64,000 bases of DNA from Candidatus Rokubacteria bacterium 13_1_40CM_69_27 (GCA_001917535.1 MNEF01000083.1:4219-68218); one strand, 5' to 3'; numbered from the stretch's first letter, positions 8,004 through 62,352 are shown. Translations and numbers: made by a program. The notes: generated by a model from the sequence alone, not told the origin.

Positions 8004-10490
8004 ATGTCCAGCGACCGCTATTCCGTCCGTGACATCGAGGCCAAGTGGCAGCGGATCTGGGAGGAACGGAAGCAGTTTCGCGCCACCGAGGATCCGAGCC
8101 GCCCGAAGTTCTACTGCCTGGAGATGTTCCCGTACCCGTCGGGTCGCATTCACATGGGTCACGTCCGCGTGTACGCCATCGGCGATCTCCTGGCCCGCTA
8201 CAAGCGGATGCGCGGCTTCAACGTGCTCCACCCGATGGGCTGGGACGCCTTCGGCCTGCCCGCCGAGAACGCGGCGATCGAGCACGGCGTGCATCCGGCC
8301 ATCTGGACCTACGAGAACATCGACTCCATGCGCTCGCAGCTCCAGAAGCTGGGAACCTCCTACGACTGGGACCGCGAGGTGACCACCTGCGATCCCGCCT
8401 ACTACAAGTGGGAGCAGCTCATCTTCATCAAGATGTTCGAGCGCGGGCTCGCCTACCGCCGCCGCTCGGCCGTGAACTGGTGCCCCTCGTGCAAGACGGT
8501 GCTGGCCAACGAGCAGGTGGAGGCGGGCCGGTGCTGGCGGTGCGATTCAGAGGTGACGCTGCGCGAGATCGAGGGCTGGTTCTTCAAGATCACGGCCTAC
8601 GCCGACGAGCTGCTCGCCTGGTGCGACCGGTTGCCGGGCTGGCCCGAGCGCGTGCTCACGATGCAGCGGAACTGGATCGGCCGGAGCGAGGGCGCGGAGT
8701 TCGACCTGCCCGCCGCCGGCCGGCCCGAGCTCAAGATCCGCGTCTTCACCACGCGTCCGGACACCGCCTTCGGCATGACCTACGCCGTGATCGCCCCGGA
8801 GCATCCGCTGGTGGACCGGCTCGCCGCCGGCGAGGCCGAGCGGGCGGCGGTGGCGGCCTTCCGGGCCGAGGTGGCGCGCCAGTCGGAGATCGAGCGGCTG
8901 GCGGTGGACCGGCCCAAGCGGGGCCTCCGGCTGTCGGCGTGCGTGGTGAATCCCTTCAGCGGCGTCGAGATCCCGCTGTTCATCGCGGACTACGTCCTCA
9001 TGGGCTACGGCACGGGCGCGATCATGGCGGTGCCCGGGGAGGACCAGCGGGACTGGGACTTCGCCAAGCAGCACGACCTGCCCATCATCGAGACCGTGGA
9101 GCGGCCTCCCGGCTGGGTCGGCGAGGCCTACACGGGCGAGGGGATCAAGATCAACTCGGGCTTCCTCGACGGCCTGACGGTCGCCGACGCCAAGCGCAGG
9201 GCGATCGACTGGCTGGTCCAGCGCGGCCTCGGCGAGGCGAAGGTGAACTACCGCCTGCGCGACTGGGGGATCAGCCGCCAGCGCTACTGGGGCGCCCCCA
9301 TTCCGATCCTCTACTGCGACGCTTGCGGCATGGTGCCGGAGAGAGAGGAGAACCTGCCGGTGGTGCTCCCGCGCGACGTCCAGCTCAGCGGCAAGGGAGG
9401 CTCGCCGCTCGCCGACGTCGCCACCTTCGTCAACGCCCGCTGCCCGCGCTGCGGGGGCCGGGCGCGCCGCGAAACCGACACGATGGACACCTTCGTCGAG
9501 TCATCGTGGTATTTTCTGCGCTACTGCTCGCCACGGTACGAAAGCGGGATGTTCGAGCCCCAGGCCGCCGACTACTGGATGCCCGTCGACCAGTACATCG
9601 GCGGCATCGAGCACGCCGTCCTCCATCTCCTCTATGCGCGCTTCTACACCAAGGTGCTGCGCGACCTCGGGCTCACCAAGGTGGACGAGCCATTCACCGC
9701 GCTGCTGAGCCAGGGAATGGTCATCAAGGACGGCGCCAAGATGTCGAAGTCGAAGGGCAACATCGTGGATCCCGACGAGCAGGTCCGCAAGTATGGCGCG
9801 GACACCGCCCGCCTCTTCTCGCTCTTCGCGGCGCCGCCGGAGAAGGATCTCGATTGGAACGACCACGGCGTCGAGGGCGCGTTCCGCTTCCTCAGCCGCG
9901 TGTGGCGCTTCGTGGCCGGGCATCTCGAAGAGTTGCGCCAGGTCGGGAGCCTGCGGGGGGCGCCGGGGTCCGAGGAGAGCCGCACGTTCCGCCGCACGAT
10001 CCACGAGACCGTCAAGCGGGTGACCGACGATATCGAGCACGATTTCCATTTCAATACGGCGGTGAGCGCGATCATGGAGTTGGTCAATGCGCTCCCGGCC
10101 TTCGCGTCGGCGCCGCCCGACCGCGTCCCGCCGGGCGAGCGCACGGCGCTGCTCCGGGAGGCGGTGGAGGCCATGCTGCTCCTGCTCGCCCCCTTCTGCC
10201 CCCATATCACCGAGGAGCTGTGGGCCCGGCTCGGCCATACCGAGAGCGTGTTCGCCCGGCGGTGGCCCGAGGCCGATCCGGCGGCGCTTGAACGAGACGA
10301 GGTCACCCTCGTGGTCCAGATCGACGGCAAGGTACGCAGCCGCCTGACCGTCGAGGCCGGTGCGCCCGAGGCGGACGTGCAGCGCCGGGCCCTGGCGGAC
10401 GACAAGGTCAAGACCTGGCTCGCCGCACGGCGGGTCGAGCGGGTCGTCATCGTCCCCAACCGGCTCGTCAACATCGTCACCCACTCATGA
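8004..10490 (+). CDS. leuS: leucine--tRNA ligase
   Basis: HMGHVR (HIGH) and KMSKSKGN (KMSKS) motifs, 828 aa, leuS-lptE-holA synteny. Confidence 0.97.
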   Translation: MSSDRYSVRDIEAKWQRIWEERKQFRATEDPSRPKFYCLEMFPYPSGRIHMGHVRVYAIGDLLARYKRMRGFNVLHPMGWDAFGLPAENAAIEHGVHPAIWTYENIDSMRSQLQKLGTSYDWDREVTTCDPAYYKWEQLIFIKMFERGLAYRRRSAVNWCPSCKTVLANEQVEAGRCWRCDSEVTLREIEGWFFKITAYADELLAWCDRLPGWPERVLTMQRNWIGRSEGAEFDLPAAGRPELKIRVFTTRPDTAFGMTYAVIAPEHPLVDRLAAGEAERAAVAAFRAEVARQSEIERLAVDRPKRGLRLSACVVNPFSGVEIPLFIADYVLMGYGTGAIMAVPGEDQRDWDFAKQHDLPIIETVERPPGWVGEAYTGEGIKINSGFLDGLTVADAKRRAIDWLVQRGLGEAKVNYRLRDWGISRQRYWGAPIPILYCDACGMVPEREENLPVVLPRDVQLSGKGGSPLADVATFVNARCPRCGGRARRETDTMDTFVESSWYFLRYCSPRYESGMFEPQAADYWMPVDQYIGGIEHAVLHLLYARFYTKVLRDLGLTKVDEPFTALLSQGMVIKDGAKMSKSKGNIVDPDEQVRKYGADTARLFSLFAAPPEKDLDWNDHGVEGAFRFLSRVWRFVAGHLEELRQVGSLRGAPGSEESRTFRRTIHETVKRVTDDIEHDFHFNTAVSAIMELVNALPAFASAPPDRVPPGERTALLREAVEAMLLLLAPFCPHITEELWARLGHTESVFARRWPEADPAALERDEVTLVVQIDGKVRSRLTVEAGAPEADVQRRALADDKVKTWLAARRVERVVIVPNRLVNIVTHS

Positions 10491-11031: not shown

Positions 11032-12045
11032 GTGGACTACGCCGCCTTTCTCCGAAACGCCGAGCGCGGCCAGCTTCCCCCAATCGCGCTCCTTCACGGC
11101 GCCGACCCGCAGCTCCTCGACGATGCGCTGGCCGTGGTCGCCCGGGCCCTCTTTCCGGACCCGTCACTGGCCGTCTTCGACCGCGACGCGTTCGACGCCC
11201 GCGAGGCGGAGGTCGAGGCCGTCGTCAACGCGGCGCTCACGCTGCCGGTGCAGGCCGCCTTGCGGCTGGTGGTGGTGCGCCGCGCCCAGGCGCTGGCGCC
11301 GAAGGGCACCGAGACGCTGACGCGCTACCTCGCCCGTCCCAACCCCGCGGCCGCGGTCCTCCTGCTCGCCGACGAGCCCCTGGGAGTCTCGCGCGACCGC
11401 CGGAACCCGCACTGGCTGCTGGGGGTGCTGCCGGCGACCGCCGTCGTCGAGCTCCTGCCCCGGCGGGGCCGCGCGCTCGAGGAATGGCTGCGTCAGCGCG
11501 CGCTGGCCGAGGGCCTCAGCGTGAGCGAAGAGGCGGCGCGTCTCCTCGTCCAGTGGGTGGGGGAGGACAGCGCGGCGCTGCTCGGCGAGGCGCGCAAGGC
11601 GGCGCTGGCCGGAGGCAGCGACAACCGGGCGGTCGGCGTCACCGAGGTCACCGCCGTCGTCGGCGAGCACCGGGTCAGTGCCATCTTCGAACTTACCCGG
11701 GCGATCGAGCGCCACGAGGTCGGCCTCGCCCTGAAGACGCTCGAGCGGCTGCTCGCCACCGAGGACGCGGTCTTCGTCCTGGCCGCCCTGACGCGCGACG
11801 TGCGGACGGCCTGGATGGTCCGCGCCTGGCGCGAGCGCGGCCAGACGGTCGACCAGATCGCCCGCATGCTCCGCCGCCCTCCCGGGGCCGTCGAGGCGCT
11901 CGTCGCCGCGGCCACGACGCAGACGGCGGACGTCCTGGCGGGAAAGCTGGTCCGCTGCTGGCGGGCCGAGCAGCGCCTGAAGTCGGGCGGTGAGGCTCGG
12001 GCCGAGATGGCGGCACTGGTGGCGGAGCTCTGTGGTGCGGGGTAG
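11032..12045 (+). CDS. holA: DNA polymerase III subunit delta
   Basis: Position after lptE; N-terminus LLHGADPQLLDDAL and overall delta-subunit pattern; start taken as GTG 11032 (the track ORF extends upstream in the same frame through lptE). Confidence 0.75.
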   Translation: MDYAAFLRNAERGQLPPIALLHGADPQLLDDALAVVARALFPDPSLAVFDRDAFDAREAEVEAVVNAALTLPVQAALRLVVVRRAQALAPKGTETLTRYLARPNPAAAVLLLADEPLGVSRDRRNPHWLLGVLPATAVVELLPRRGRALEEWLRQRALAEGLSVSEEAARLLVQWVGEDSAALLGEARKAALAGGSDNRAVGVTEVTAVVGEHRVSAIFELTRAIERHEVGLALKTLERLLATEDAVFVLAALTRDVRTAWMVRAWRERGQTVDQIARMLRRPPGAVEALVAAATTQTADVLAGKLVRCWRAEQRLKSGGEARAEMAALVAELCGAG

Positions 12046-56010: not shown

Positions 56011-56379
56011 ATGAGCGCCCGCGGGGGCGGGCTGCGGCGCGTCGAGAAGGAAATCGTTGCCGAGAAGGCGGCGGCTCTCGGCCGCGCTGGCGAGCGCCTA
56101 GAGCAGGCCCTGGCCGAGGTGGCGGAGCTCGACGCCCGGCTCGCTGCCGCCAGCGATCCCCACGCGCGCGCGCGCTTGGGCCCCGCCTATGAGCAGGCGC
56201 GCGCCCGCGCCGCCAGCGAAAGGCTCGGGCTCCTGATTCAGCGCGAGGCGATCGGCCTGCGCCATCACCGGATCGTGGACCAGCAGTTTCCCGAACCGCC
56301 ACCGCTCACGGGGGGGCCCCGCGGCCCCGGGACGACAGCCTCAGGGAGCGCATCCACCGCGCCGACCACGCTCTCATGA
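56011..56379 (+). CDS. hypothetical Ala/Arg-rich coiled-coil protein
   Basis: ATGA overlap with the downstream paaK-like gene supports translation; no recognisable domain; start coincides with the edge of repeat R5. Confidence 0.45.
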   Translation: MSARGGGLRRVEKEIVAEKAAALGRAGERLEQALAEVAELDARLAAASDPHARARLGPAYEQARARAASERLGLLIQREAIGLRHHRIVDQQFPEPPPLTGGPRGPGTTASGSASTAPTTLS

Positions 56380-57683
56380 TCTGGAACACGGCGGCCGAGA
56401 CGCAGCCGCGAGCCGAGCGCGAGGCGCTCCAGCTGACCCGCCTGGGAGACACCGCGGCCTGGGCCGCCGAGCGGGTGCCGTTCTACCGGGAGCGCCTGTC
56501 GGGCGCCTCGCTGCGCAGCCTCGGCGACCTGGCGCGCCTGCCGTTCACGCGCAAGGGCGAGCTCCGCGCCCAGTACCCCTTCGGGCTCTTCGCCGTCCCC
56601 CAGTCGGAGCTCGCGCGGCTCCATGCCTCCTCGGGCACGAAGGGCAAGCCGACGGTGGTCGGCTATACCGCGGCGGACCTCGACGTCTGGCGCGAGGTCA
56701 TGGCGCGCGTGATGGTGGCCGCCGGAGCGCAGGCGGGCGATCTGCTGCACGTCGCGTTCGGCTACGGCCTCTTCACGGGCGGCCTCGGATTCCACCAGGG
56801 CGCCGAACGCATCGGCATGACCGTGGTGCCCGCCTCCTCGGGCAACACGGCGCGTCAGTGTCTGCTGCTCCGTGACTTCCGGCCCTCCGGCATCGCCGCG
56901 ACGCCCTCCTTCGCCCTGCATATCGCCGAGACGCTGGCCGAGCAGGGGAGCAAGCCGGGGCAGACCGGGCTCCGCTACGGGATGTTCGGCGCCGAGCCCT
57001 GGAGCGAGGGCCTGCGCCGCGCGATTGAGGCCGGGCTCGGCTGCCGCGCCTACGACATCTACGGCCTCTCGGAGATCATCGGCCCCGGGGTGTCGGGAGA
57101 GTGCGAGGCGCGCCAAGGGCTCCACATCTGCGACGATCACTTCCTGCCCGAGGTCGTCGATCCCGCGTCCGGGGCCTCGCTTCCGCCGGGATGTCAGGGA
57201 GAGCTGGTCCTCACGACGCTGACCAAACGCGCCATGCCCCTGATCCGCTACCGCACCGGCGACATCACCGCCCTGACGCTCGAGCCCTGCCGCTGCGGGC
57301 GGACCTCCGCGCGAATGGCGCGGCTCATCGGCCGGGCCGACGATATGCTTATCATCAAGGGAGTCAACGTCTATCCCTCGGAGGTCGAGCAGGCACTGCT
57401 GGATCTGGAGGACCTGGTGCCGCAGTACCAGCTGGTGGTCGACCGGACCGGGACCCTGGCCCGGGTCGAGGTGCAGATCGAGCCGGCGCCGGCGTTCCTG
57501 GAACGGTACGGCGGCGTGGAGGCCGGAGGCCCGGCGGTGGCGGCGCTGCGGGAGCGGGTGGCCGGCCGCCTGCACGCCGCCCTCGGGCTGAGCGTGGACG
57601 TGACGCTGCTGCCGGCCCGGACGCTCCCGCGCTCGGAGGGCAAGGCGGTCCGGGTCGTCGAACGAACGGAGGGCAAGCGATGA
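56376..57683 (+). CDS. paaK: phenylacetate-CoA ligase family (PaaK/coenzyme F390 synthetase-like) adenylate-forming enzyme
   Basis: Q..L..L....A.ERVPFYRERL N-terminus, SSGTKGKPT AMP-binding motif, YGLSE, YRTGD, KGVNVYPSEVE. Confidence 0.85.
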   Translation: MIWNTAAETQPRAEREALQLTRLGDTAAWAAERVPFYRERLSGASLRSLGDLARLPFTRKGELRAQYPFGLFAVPQSELARLHASSGTKGKPTVVGYTAADLDVWREVMARVMVAAGAQAGDLLHVAFGYGLFTGGLGFHQGAERIGMTVVPASSGNTARQCLLLRDFRPSGIAATPSFALHIAETLAEQGSKPGQTGLRYGMFGAEPWSEGLRRAIEAGLGCRAYDIYGLSEIIGPGVSGECEARQGLHICDDHFLPEVVDPASGASLPPGCQGELVLTTLTKRAMPLIRYRTGDITALTLEPCRCGRTSARMARLIGRADDMLIIKGVNVYPSEVEQALLDLEDLVPQYQLVVDRTGTLARVEVQIEPAPAFLERYGGVEAGGPAVAALRERVAGRLHAALGLSVDVTLLPARTLPRSEGKAVRVVERTEGKR

Positions 57684-58501
57684 GCGACCTCGAGAAGGCC
57701 ATGATGGCGAAGATCGGGAACGGCGTCCGGCTGGAGGCGCTCGATGAGATGACGCCGGAGTATCGCGAGCACCTCGTCCACCTCATGACGATGCAGGCGG
57801 ACTCGGAGCTGGCGGGCGGCTACGGCTACGTGCCGTGGATCACCAAGGCCCCGATCGTCGAGGAAAAGCACGTCGTGGCCCAGATCGTGAAGGACGAGCT
57901 CCGCCACGCCACGGTGATGTACGGGCTGCTGGCCGACCTCGGGGTCGACGTCGAGCGCCACGTGAGCGCCCACGACGAGATCTTCACGATGCGCATCGAC
58001 CGCGATGCCGACCTCGGGACGAAGCGAATCACGAGCGACAAACGCGTCAATATCTTCTACTACCCGATCGAGACCTGGGCGGATTTCATCTTCTTCAACT
58101 TCTGCATGGACCGCGGTGCCGGCCACCAGCTGGAGGACGTGCGCCACTGCTCCTACGGCCCCTGGGTCCGGGCCATCGAGGGCATCTTCAAGGAGGAGAA
58201 GTTCCACATCCGCCACGGCGAGTACTGGGTGAAGAAGCTCGCGGACGACCCGGCCACGCACGACGAGGCCCAGACCACCTTCAACAAGTGGTACATCCGC
58301 ACGATGAACATCTTCGGCCGGCCGGGCTCGCCGAAGAACCGGCGCTACCGGGAGCTCCGGCTCAAGGCGCGCGACAACGACGAGGTCCGCCAGGCCTTCG
58401 CGACCGAGGTGAAGGCGCTCTGCGCGACGTTCGGCCTCGAGCTACCGGAGTGGAAGCCCCGGTGGGCGGAGCTGCCTGAAGAAGCCCACATCCCCGGGTA
58501 A
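57680..58501 (+). CDS. PaaA-like ferritin-fold di-iron oxygenase subunit (phenylacetic acid catabolic protein family)
   Basis: Aligns by eye with E. coli PaaA blocks: DSELAG, KDELRHA (ExxH), TWADFIFFNF, CSYGPWVRAI, KEEKFHIRHG (ExxH); ATGA overlap with the paaK-like gene. Confidence 0.8.
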   Translation: MSDLEKAMMAKIGNGVRLEALDEMTPEYREHLVHLMTMQADSELAGGYGYVPWITKAPIVEEKHVVAQIVKDELRHATVMYGLLADLGVDVERHVSAHDEIFTMRIDRDADLGTKRITSDKRVNIFYYPIETWADFIFFNFCMDRGAGHQLEDVRHCSYGPWVRAIEGIFKEEKFHIRHGEYWVKKLADDPATHDEAQTTFNKWYIRTMNIFGRPGSPKNRRYRELRLKARDNDEVRQAFATEVKALCATFGLELPEWKPRWAELPEEAHIPG

Positions 58502-58505
58502 CCCG

Positions 58506-58997
58506 ATGACACCTCGGTACGGCGCGCCCGCCCCCGACTTCTCGCTGCCCTCCAGCCAGGGGGGCGAGGTCACCCTCGCGAGCTTCCGCGGCCAGGCCGA
58601 TATCGTGCTGGCCTTCTACTGCTACGACTGGGGTGGGATCTGAACGCCAGAGCTCACCGGCCTGGGCCAGGCCGCCGACGGCCTGCGTGAGCGGGGCGCC
58701 GTCCTGCTCGCCATCAGCGGCGACAGCCCCTTCTGCCACCGCGCGTTCGCCCAGGCCCGCACGCTTCCGTTTCCGCTCCTGAGCGACGTGCACCGAACCG
58801 CGATCCGCGCCTACGGAGTGCTCGACGAAGACCGCAACGTGGCCTATCGCTCGACGTTCATCGTGGACCGCGACGGGATCCTACGCTGGGGGCAGGCCGG
58901 CGATCGCGAGATGGTACGGGAGGGGACCGAGATCCTCCGGGTCCTCGACCTGATCGGCGCGTTGCGCCGGGCGCGGGCCACCACCCAGTCAAGTTGA
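58506..58997 (+). CDS. AhpC/TSA (Bcp-like) peroxiredoxin with in-frame TGA (58641-58643) at the peroxidatic position; candidate selenoprotein
   Basis: Single open frame from ATG 58506 to TGA 58995-58997 apart from one TGA; FYCYDWGGI-[TGA]-TPELTGL aligns with F-Y-P-x-x-x-T-x-x-C-T of peroxiredoxins; conserved Arg in YRSTFIVD. Confidence 0.7.
58652..58692 (+). other. candidate bacterial SECIS-like stem-loop downstream of the UGA
   Basis: GCUCAC (58652-58657)/GUGAGC (58687-58692) plus GGCC/GGCC inner stem; alternative compact hairpin GGCCU-GGGCC-AGGCC at 58659-58673 with a G-rich apical loop 21-25 nt after the UGA. Confidence 0.35.
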
Positions 58998-60610: not shown

Positions 60611-60925
60611 TCACTGCGGAATCTCGACGAAGATCGCGCCGTTCTCCACGATGACCGGGAAGCACGCGACCTTGAGACCGGGATTGTTGGCGTTGGCCCC
60701 GGTGGTCACGTCCCAGCGCCAGCCGTGCCACGGGCATGCGACGATACGGCCCTCCAGATCGCCCTCGCCGAGCGGGCCACCGCGGTGCGCGCACGTGTTG
60801 TCGATGGCGTAGAACCGGCCGTCGAGGTTGAACAACGCCACGGTGTGGCCGCCCGCCTGGACGACCCGGCCCTCGCCGACCGGCACCTCGGTGACCGCGG
60901 CCACGTTCACCCGTACCTGTCCCAC
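60611..60925 (-). CDS. Rieske [2Fe-2S] ferredoxin-type protein
   Basis: CAHRGGPL...CPWHGW Rieske ligands, 104 aa. Confidence 0.88.
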   Translation of the reverse strand: MGQVRVNVAAVTEVPVGEGRVVQAGGHTVALFNLDGRFYAIDNTCAHRGGPLGEGDLEGRIVACPWHGWRWDVTTGANANNPGLKVACFPVIVENGAIFVEIPQ

Positions 60926-60981: not shown

Positions 60982-62352
60982 ATGATCTTCCACCAGCTGC
61001 AGAACGAGGAGTCGGGTTGTCTGTCGTACCTGATCGGCTGCGGCCAGGCGGGCGAGGCGGTCGTGGTGGACCCCGGGCGTGACCGGGTGGACGACTACCT
61101 CCGGCTGGCGCGCAAGAAAGGGCTCAAGATCACCCGGATCATCGAGACCCACACCCACGCCGATCACATCTCGGGTAACCGTGACCTGGCGGCGCTCACC
61201 ACGGCGCCCATCCTCCTCCATCACTCGAGCAAAGCCATCTTCGACCACCTCACCGTGAGGGACGGCGACGAGGTTCGGATCGGCACCGTCTCGCTCAAGG
61301 TCATGCACACGCCCGGGCACACGCCCGACAGCCTGTGTCTGCTGGTGACCGACCGCGGCCGGGGCAGCGATCCCTGGTTCATCCTCACCGGCGACACGCT
61401 CTTCATCGGCGATGTCGGGCGGCCCGACCTGGGCGGCGAGCAGGCGGCGGCCGACCTCTACGCGAGCCTGCACACGGCGCTCTTGCCCCTGCCCGACAGC
61501 GTCGAGGTGTACCCGGCGCACGGCGCCGGCTCGCTCTGCGGGCGCGCGATGTCCTCCAAGTCGGCCTCGACCATCGGCTTCGAGCGGCGCTTTAACCCGG
61601 CGCTGGCGGCCTGGAGCCAGGACGAGTTCGTGCAGCTCGTGATGACCGGCCTGCCGGCGAAGCCGCCCTCCTTCGAGACCATCGTCGGCAAGAATCAGGG
61701 GACCATCCCGCTCGCCAGCGCGAAGCCCCGCCCCTACACGGCACGCGAGGCGTGGGAGGCGGTGCAGCACGGCGCCTGCGTCGTCGACCTGCGCGATCCC
61801 TCCACGTACGGCGAGGGCCACGTGCCCGCGGCGATCAACGTGTGGATCGAGAGCCCGCAGTTCGCCGACCGCGTGAGCTGGTTCGCGCCGACGGGGGCGC
61901 CGCTGATCCTCGTGGCCCAGGGCCCGTCCGACCTGGACCGCGCGCTCGGCGGACTGACGCGGGTGGGTGTCGACCAGGTCGTGGGGTTCATCCAGCGCGG
62001 CATGATCGAGTGGCGCAGTGAGGAGCTCCCGGTGGAAACCGTCCCCCAGATCACGGTGTACGACCTCGCCGAGTGGCTGGAGGAACGGCGAGAGGTCGTG
62101 GTCGTCGACGTGCGGGAGCCGTTCGAATGGCGCGAGGGCCACATCGACGGCGCTCTGCATTTGCCGATGCTGGAGGCCGCCGGCCGGCTGGATGAGATCC
62201 CGCGCGAACGTCCCAAAGCCGTCCTCTGTGCGGGAGGCCTGCGCTCGAGCACCGTGATCAGCGCGCTGAAGCGTCGGGGGATCGGGAGCTGGTACAACGT
62301 CACCGGCGGGATGACGGCCTGGCTGAAGGCGGGCCATCCGGTCGGGCGCTAG
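60982..62352 (+). CDS. MBL-fold persulfide-dioxygenase-like domain fused to two rhodanese domains
   Basis: HTHADHISG metallo-beta-lactamase motif, HTPGHTPDS, GDTLFIGDVGRPD; C-terminal rhodanese with active-site loop CAGGLRSS; perfect TATAAT at 60957-60962. Confidence 0.85.
   Translation: MIFHQLQNEESGCLSYLIGCGQAGEAVVVDPGRDRVDDYLRLARKKGLKITRIIETHTHADHISGNRDLAALTTAPILLHHSSKAIFDHLTVRDGDEVRIGTVSLKVMHTPGHTPDSLCLLVTDRGRGSDPWFILTGDTLFIGDVGRPDLGGEQAAADLYASLHTALLPLPDSVEVYPAHGAGSLCGRAMSSKSASTIGFERRFNPALAAWSQDEFVQLVMTGLPAKPPSFETIVGKNQGTIPLASAKPRPYTAREAWEAVQHGACVVDLRDPSTYGEGHVPAAINVWIESPQFADRVSWFAPTGAPLILVAQGPSDLDRALGGLTRVGVDQVVGFIQRGMIEWRSEELPVETVPQITVYDLAEWLEERREVVVVDVREPFEWREGHIDGALHLPMLEAAGRLDEIPRERPKAVLCAGGLRSSTVISALKRRGIGSWYNVTGGMTAWLKAGHPVGR

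Follow-up and report, generated by a model that had tools for sequence, protein, structure and literature searches.

Background

The active site of the peroxiredoxins (Prx) is regarded as being universally made up of a Pro, a Thr, a Cys and an Arg, and in the thiol-dependent enzymes the canonical Thr serves as the proton acceptor and activator. Among the closest described relatives of the gene considered here is AhpE (Rv2238c; PDB 1XXU, 4X0X), a 1-Cys Prx which lacks a resolving Cys and depends on mycoredoxin/mycothiol for its reduction. Another is PrxU of Eubacterium (Peptoclostridium) acidaminophilum, an AhpC/TSA family enzyme with selenocysteine (Sec) for the peroxidatic Cys and an in-frame bacterial Sec insertion sequence (bSECIS). 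Here we describe a gene at positions 58506-58997 (plus strand) of a 64,000-nucleotide stretch of DNA, hereafter the window, from Candidatus Rokubacteria bacterium 13_1_40CM_69_27 (GCA_001917535.1 MNEF01000083.1:4219-68218), which is interrupted by a UGA at its peroxidatic position and, with a probability that we put at about 0.88, encodes a genuine Sec-decoded enzyme of the Prx fold.

Further selenoproteins with a thioredoxin or Prx fold have been predicted by comparative genomics, namely the Prx-like oxidoreductases with UxxC or UxxU motifs and the Prx-like cd02970 proteins with a UxxS motif. The catalogued Sec 'Prx' family (PF00578) is characterized by a highly conserved PxxxTxxU motif (PMC13188914). 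In the thiol enzymes, a density functional theory study of AhpE from Mycobacterium tuberculosis (MtAhpE) gave Thr42 the role of proton acceptor, the Thr of a Leishmania Prx was found to be replaceable by Ser and not by residues without a hydroxyl group, and Pro38 is listed among the MtAhpE residues near the reactive centre (PMC7231847). As for the organisms, a Methylomirabilota metagenome-assembled genome (MAG) with 63 predicted selenoprotein genes has been proposed as the largest bacterial selenoproteome so far (PMC13188914), and another report describes Sec-type [NiFeSe] hydrogenases in Methylomirabilota and the presence of selABCD in ~90% of Sec-type genomes overall (PMC13582414). Both Sec-peroxiredoxins and the use of Sec in this phylum are already known, and the existence of such a gene is in itself unsurprising to a specialist.

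Results and discussion

A peroxiredoxin gene interrupted by a single in-frame UGA

In the window, which has a G+C content of 69.6%, a single frame of 163 codons extends from an ATG at 58506 to a TGA at 58995-58997, with codon 46 (58641-58643) as its sole internal TGA. An initial annotation, made from the sequence alone, had proposed this frame together with a Sec reading of the internal TGA, and its translation and coordinates proved to be exact. We predict that the gene encodes an AhpE-like Sec-peroxiredoxin of the AhpC/TSA family, based on the frame, the Pfam match, the alignment with MtAhpE and the AlphaFold2 (AF2) model of a homologue. In the mechanical open reading frame (ORF) list just two pieces of it appear, a head of 45 aa (58506-58643) and a tail of 69 aa (58788-58997), and in the identical DNA of NCBI GCA_001918005.1 and of an ENA contig either these two pieces or the tail alone were called. 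The gene is likewise split or shortened in all the public records examined. A protein search recovered 969 relatives, with a few seemingly full-length entries on top followed by hundreds of proteins of 90-108 aa, which comprise only the C-terminal 55-65% and populate hundreds of 90%-identity clusters named 'peroxiredoxin'; the start sites chosen by gene callers 3' of the TGA vary between genomes.

With a Cys put in place of the internal stop for the profile search, the Pfam AhpC-TSA domain (PF00578) matches residues 6-128 with an E-value of 2.8e-35 (121 bits, the cutoff being 26; positions 2-123 of the 124-position profile), and this match spans the TGA unbroken, in agreement with the earlier suggestion of one contiguous AhpC/TSA product. 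The best sequence relative of solved structure is MtAhpE (1.5e-20), which is of the same length class (~153-163 aa) and shares the same fold (template modelling (TM) score 0.72-0.78). The AF2 model of the homologue P0002 (predicted local distance difference test score 76.7) displays the full Prx fold, with TM scores of 0.72-0.80 to Prx1, Prx2 and AhpE, and neither half alone forms a complete thioredoxin fold. The protein combines a full-length Prx domain with a peroxidatic Cys/Sec position and the catalytic Arg, as is required of a peroxiredoxin. Its placement in the AhpE subfamily is to be read in the light of the top PDB sequence match being AhpE at an identity of ~35% and of Foldseek ranking Prx1 and Prx2 equally. 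The initial label 'Bcp-like' has to be abandoned, as the protein is closer to AhpE and the Prx1-type enzymes than to Bcp.

In the alignment with MtAhpE the peroxidatic position, the Glu and the catalytic Arg correspond residue for residue: U46, the UGA codon that we read as Sec, falls on the peroxidatic Cys45 of the FTGIC motif, Glu49 on Glu48, and Arg115 of the YRSTF motif (codon at 58848-58850) on Arg116. The remaining two canonical positions differ, with Cys39 (TGC, 58620-58622), a candidate resolving Cys, in the place of Pro38, and Gly43 (58632-58634) in that of Thr42. The alignment thereby bears out what had been noticed at the outset, namely that the TGA lies at the catalytic Cys, that the active-site Arg is retained and that the Pro and Thr of PxxxTxxC are here Cys and Gly. 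These features were followed through an orthologue set made up of the window and 58 loci that match across the site, one genome per GTDB species (59 sequences in all). The clade is defined by the motif F-[YF]-C-[YF]-D-[WF]-G-x-I-U-[TS]-P-E; Cys39, Gly43, Ile45, Pro48, Glu49 and Arg115 are invariant, so that neither the Thr/Ser nor the Pro of PxxxTxxC is kept in any of the 59 sequences, and Cys77 is found in 52 of them. A few Cys-type relatives also lack the canonical Pro and have V or L instead.

These characters set the clade apart from the described Sec families. The parallel drawn at the outset with PrxU stands as far as the Sec reading is concerned, but the two are not equivalogs, as the PrxU model NF040737 (233 positions, Prx1/AhpC-type) scores the protein at 67.3 bits against a cutoff of 270. 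Similarly, the model for Prx-SUH (NF045827, CxxU) yields 21.4 bits against a cutoff of 298, the residue at -3 being Gly rather than Cys, and scores to the other NCBIfam selenoprotein models, including the SelL-related and WAxxUGC ones, lie far below their cutoffs. Whereas the catalogued family has PxxxTxxU, CxxxGxxU is found throughout the clade, a change in two of the four canonical active-site residues, and the UxxC/UxxU, UxxS and CxxU motifs are unlike its G-x-I-U-T-P-E with a Cys at -7. In the literature covered we found no description of a Sec clade that is AhpE-like, shares CxxxGxxU over ~60 species and lacks a close Cys-type counterpart.

Conservation of the UGA and constraint on both sides of it

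The 58 loci show 66-80% protein identity, and almost all of them bear the label Methylomirabilota, Rokubacteria or Rokuibacteriota. Past them the identity falls sharply to ~40%, to sequences from Streptomyces, Kitasatospora and Gemmatimonadota with a canonical FYPFAFTGVC. Codon 46 is TGA in 59/59 sequences and never TAA, TAG, TGC or TGT, an agreement far greater than chance would give. At its true C-terminal end the gene stops with TGA (about half of the orthologues), TAA or TAG. The 20 nearest Cys-type homologues have TGC at the position of codon 46. There are no frameshifts and no additional stops in the set. The mean ratio of nonsynonymous to synonymous polymorphism (pN/pS) is 0.46 over the 40 codons upstream of the TGA and 0.34 over the 99 codons downstream, and immediately after the TGA the residues T47, P48, E49 and L50 are held at the protein level with third positions that vary freely. 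Both halves are by these measures under purifying selection. The initial annotation had asked whether orthologues carry TGA or TGC/TGT at this codon, and had counted further disabling mutations and a lost coding signature downstream of the TGA against its own reading; neither TGC/TGT nor such decay is seen here. The shared TGA and the constraint on both sides of it make readings as a sequencing error, a pseudogene or two separate genes untenable.

An exhaustive HMMER search of 1.84 billion representatives recovered only truncated fragments above ~52% identity, which we read as Sec forms, and full-length relatives that are at most 46% identical to the window protein; no close Cys-type form was found among these representatives. 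The nearest full-length sequences, at 37-46% identity, are metagenomic peroxiredoxins of the form FYP[LF]D[FW][ST]xxC and AhpE-like proteins of Streptomyces and Kitasatospora. They share with the Sec clade the blocks F-Y-x-x-D-[FW], DSxxxH, LLSD and R-[SG]-T-F, but differ from it in having a Cys encoded by TGC, with S or T three residues before it and P, or rarely V or L, seven residues before it, and no hairpin downstream; typical motifs are FYPLDFSGTC, FYPLDWSPVC, FYLLDWTSVC and FYVYAFSGGC.

The seemingly full-length database proteins show a W where the TGA lies and, in many cases, another at the normal stop. In the DNA of P0008 these W residues are TGA codons on a short contig from the Joint Genome Institute (JGI) that was translated with a TGA=Trp table. 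P0001, P0002, P0004-P0010 and L085:601-1296 are similar JGI calls with TGA as Trp and have spurious C-terminal extensions past the true stop. Such entries could mislead searches for a non-Sec homologue. In two others, P0003 and P0135, the Sec position is occupied by Leu (GGI-L-TPEL). P0003, which is on record as protein only, may be a real TTA/TTG variant, an error or a quirk of translation, and P0135 looks frameshifted towards its C-terminus. P0011 is a 148-aa entry without the active-site segment (FYCYE-LCGLGEV), perhaps because of a real deletion or because the gene call jumped artificially over the region of the TGA.

Eight of the 58 loci (L009, L015, L030, L034, L037, L040, L045 and L050) come from MAGs labelled as other taxa, namely Binatia, Nitrosocosmicus, Verrucomicrobiia, Dormiibacterota, Limnocylindria, Deferrimicrobiaceae, Acidoferrum and Myxococcales. 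All eight belong to one soil MAG series (SMAG), and since in sequence they look like ordinary members of the Methylomirabilota clade, they seem to have been mis-binned rather than acquired by horizontal transfer.

A constrained bSECIS-type hairpin downstream of the UGA

The initial annotation had pointed to the segment 58641-58710 as the place to look for a SECIS, and a predicted hairpin of the bSECIS type does lie there, at 58658-58674 on the plus strand (5' arm 58658-58664, loop GGC 58665-58667, 3' arm 58668-58674), and is constrained across the 59 sequences. It consists of 7 bp closed by a triloop that begins with G, starts 15 nt past the UGA and places the loop 21 nt from it. The published bSECIS model has a loop of 3-9 nt on a stem of 4-16 bp, with a G in the first two loop positions that is usually followed by G or U, a UGA-to-loop distance of 16-37 nt and a minimum free energy (MFE) of -7.5 kcal/mol or lower (PMC13188914, a 2026 review). 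All 59 sequences agree with this model on each of its four points: the loop has 3 (or 5) nt and the stem 5-8 bp, G is first in 59/59 with G or U second in 53/59, and the MFE ranges from -8.0 to -14.9 kcal/mol.

The support for this hairpin is comparative. Counting the U of the UGA as 0, positions 17-23 pair with 27-33, and pairing is retained in 56, 59, 59, 59, 59, 59 and 52 sequences for the seven pairs in turn. At the pair 19-31, A-U occurs 23 times, G-U 12 times and G-C 24 times, and A-C never (Fisher p = 6e-8, a value that ignores phylogeny), and at the pair 23-27 a G-C has become C-G in three sequences. The third-codon positions that fall within the stem (17, 20, 23, 29 and 32) are nearly frozen, being identical in 57, 59, 53, 59 and 58 sequences, whereas those outside of it (5, 8, 14, 26, 35, 38, 44 and 47) vary freely; this points to an RNA-level constraint on top of the coding constraint. 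The structure pairs 97.4% of cells, as against 10-45% in slid controls, with 25 compensatory cells; none of 500 shuffles reaches the observed covariation score, and RNAalifold independently predicts a 5-bp core. In 20 equally GC-rich TGC-type homologues the hairpin is absent, the corresponding position allowing no more than 1-4 of the 7 pairs.

Predicted catalytic mechanism

In the mechanism that we propose, UGA-46 would be recoded to Sec via SelB and Sec-tRNA-Sec, with the hairpin as the signal, and the U46 selenolate beside Arg115 would attack the O-O bond of the peroxide to give a selenenic acid. The replacement of Thr by Gly might be tolerated because the selenol would already be ionised at physiological pH; Gly43 could thus reflect a relaxed need for the Thr, or it might make space for the larger Se or for Cys39. 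The latter, located in the pocket position of the Pro, could then condense with the selenenic acid to form an intramolecular selenenylsulfide, which would be reduced by a thioredoxin- or glutaredoxin-type reductant. We know of no described Prx subfamily that uses a resolving position seven residues upstream of the peroxidatic residue. The mycoredoxin/mycothiol system that reduces AhpE is, to our knowledge, not expected in Methylomirabilota. Taken as a whole, a Cys39-resolving and Thr-independent mechanism, in which Sec made the Thr dispensable and the Pro became an in-pocket resolving Cys, is put forward tentatively, as a possibility that we still regard as doubtful.

Other candidate selenoprotein genes

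Approximately 0.9 Mb of Methylomirabilota flanks around the related loci were scanned for TGA-bridged coding regions with bSECIS-like hairpins, and three further candidate selenoprotein genes emerged. The first, on the plus strand of L039 (9550-9966, TGA at 9697), encodes an OsmC-like protein (Pfam OsmC, 1e-17) and has a hairpin of -11.9 kcal/mol 19 nt downstream of the TGA. This TGA falls on the catalytic Cys (SPYDLLLAALGA-U-TSMT), in alignment with GLGACTAMT of PDB 9wo1. The gene ends ~30 nt before the Sec-Prx gene of the same strand, whose own TGA is at 10127, and the two possibly constitute a two-selenoprotein peroxide-defence pair. A second OsmC-like candidate (IVAAVAG-U-MYG; Pfam OsmC, 1.7e-8) is found on the plus strand of L013 with its TGA at 1364; its hairpin (-12.0 kcal/mol) resembles that of the Prx gene in having a GGC loop on a stem of the CCCUG/CAGGG type. 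The third, on the minus strand of L056 (TGA at 2876), is a DsbA-like candidate (F-S-D-Y-Q-U-P-Y-C; Thioredoxin_4, 3e-34) with a hairpin of -13.5 kcal/mol.

Most of the extra matches from a relaxed scan (e.g. '...LLAVGKP-TGA-AMAYQ...') were discarded as adjacent genes in the same frame rather than recoding events. In the window itself the only other TGA-bridged stretch with high G+C at third codon positions lies at 11166 on the minus strand; it overlaps plus-strand genes, has a first-position G+C of ~1.0, and is most likely an antisense-frame artefact.

Weighing the selenocysteine reading against its alternatives

The TGA in 59/59 sequences, the constraint on both sides of it and the constrained hairpin together support the Sec reading of the initial annotation, but several observations weigh against it or against parts of it. 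Sec insertion is predicted from nucleotide sequence. Neither the window nor the ~0.9 Mb of related flanks yielded a selA, selB, selD or tRNA-Sec, as would be expected by chance: tblastn searches of both with E. coli SelA, SelB and SelD gave nothing better than E = 0.1; in the window ARAGORN detected no tRNA and there was no Rfam match at gathering thresholds; and the 17 tRNAs that ARAGORN detected across all loci do not include tRNA-Sec. That Sec decoding may be available in the lineage is supported indirectly, by the candidate OsmC-like and DsbA-like selenoprotein genes of related genomes and by the publications on the phylum cited above. When folded alone, the segment 58641-58710, which mixes several GC-rich hairpins, gives z = -1.66, which is not significant; it was only through the comparison of orthologues that the stem in question emerged. 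The pair 19-31 corresponds to residues 52 and 56, which are i/i+4 neighbours in a helix, so that some of the covariation could arise at the protein level, although the sole non-pairing combination, A-C, is never seen. The resolving role suggested for Cys39 comes from positional homology only, and the loss of the Thr could mean an activity other than that of a classical peroxidase.

This last point leads to the reading of the protein as a genuine selenoprotein that is not a peroxidase, but a selenol/thiol oxidoreductase acting on the disulfide of a protein or a small molecule, or a redox sensor, built on the Prx scaffold with the Pro and Thr lost and a C-x6-U pair gained. Cys39 and Gly43 are both invariant, in a thiol peroxiredoxin the Thr is reported not to be replaceable by residues without a hydroxyl (PMC7231847), and selenoproteins that are Prx-like thiol:disulfide oxidoreductases with UxxC motifs form a family recognised in its own right (PMC13188914). 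However, the protein has no CxxC or UxxC redox motif, Arg115 and Glu49 are invariant, as is the U-T-P-E context that is typical for a peroxidatic site, and in L039 its gene directly follows a candidate Sec gene of the OsmC type, a hydroperoxide reductase family, which fits peroxide defence; we therefore consider a non-peroxidase function unlikely. It is a good deal less probable that UGA-46 is recoded through SelB and the SECIS but receives Cys from a tRNA of the tRNA-ReC (SelC*) type, which would yield a thiol peroxiredoxin. Insertion of Sec and of Cys cannot be told apart from the sequence, and tRNA-ReC decodes UGA as Cys with a downstream SECIS and is present in some Sec-utilising genomes (PMC13582414). 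Yet in that survey its reported hosts are Armatimonadota, Desulfobacterota and JAPLJL01 and do not include Methylomirabilota, and it was found in only ~2.3% of ordinary (non-UXXU) Sec-type genomes. Moreover, a thiol at a site that invariably has Gly43 and hence no activating Thr is expected to be a poor peroxidase, and it is hard to rationalise why a costly UGA should be kept for Cys throughout the clade with TGC one mutation away.

The TGA might instead be a true stop, either in a nonsense pseudogene or behind a 45-aa peptide that is followed by a re-initiated C-terminal fragment, as the pieces annotated by all public gene callers and the lack of Sec machinery in the window and flanks would allow. 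This is highly improbable, given that the same TGA recurs in all 59 species-level genomes at 66-80% identity with the frame otherwise intact, that purifying selection reaches the codons 47-53 right after it, and that codon 46 is never TAA or TAG, though real stops are; furthermore, the downstream starts are inconsistent across genomes and neither piece would be a complete thioredoxin fold. A sequencing or assembly error, or an alternative code in which TGA stands for Trp or Gly, would place Cys, Trp or Gly at this position, and some database entries indeed have W at codon 46. Its probability is negligible: dozens of independent assemblies from different studies agree on the TGA, which excludes the assembly error that the initial annotation had considered, TGA is the genuine stop of the same gene in about half of the orthologues, and an enzyme with Trp or Gly as its peroxidatic residue would lack activity. 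The entries with W are short JGI contigs translated with TGA=W, a translation that also runs through the true stop and a further TGA.

Genomic neighbourhood

Immediately upstream of the Sec-Prx gene, at 57680-58501 on the plus strand, is a PaaA/PaaC-like gene (Pfam PaaA_PaaC, 5.9e-40; 273 aa in the public call), whose stop TAA (58499-58501) is separated by 4 nt from the Prx ATG. The mechanical ORF of 57101-58501 over-extends this gene, the public start being at ~57680. Together with a PaaK-like AMP-ligase gene it forms a tight pair with a 4-nt overlap (56376-58501, plus strand), encoding the ligase and a ferritin-fold protein, and other paa genes are not nearby. The PaaA/PaaC-like gene adjoins the Prx gene in only 5 of the 58 loci and the PaaK/PaaA-like arrangement occurs in 5-7 of them; an operon link between the Prx gene and these genes was rejected on the basis of this limited synteny. 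About 2 kb downstream are genes for a small Rieske protein (60611-60925, minus strand) and for a metallo-beta-lactamase fold fused to two rhodanese domains (60982-62352, plus strand), an architecture like that of persulfide dioxygenases; outside of the closest relatives they do not recur near the Prx gene. Housekeeping functions account for the 20 largest or nearest genes annotated in the window, including those for UvrB, UvrC, LeuRS, MurJ, CTP synthase, sigma-54, MetK, AccA and a MiaB-like protein.

Implications

As the gene is split or shortened in public records, annotation would systematically miss an antioxidant enzyme that is widespread in one of the major phyla of soil and groundwater. 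That phylum, for which the largest bacterial selenoproteomes have recently been reported, gains a well-supported SECIS example with natural compensatory changes. The clade of ~60 species appears to have lost the Pro and the Thr exactly where Cys became Sec, and it offers a handle on what selenium buys an enzyme. If the proposed mechanism is true, these proteins would represent a new mechanistic class of peroxiredoxins, and a natural experiment on which parts of thiol activation are rendered unnecessary by Sec.

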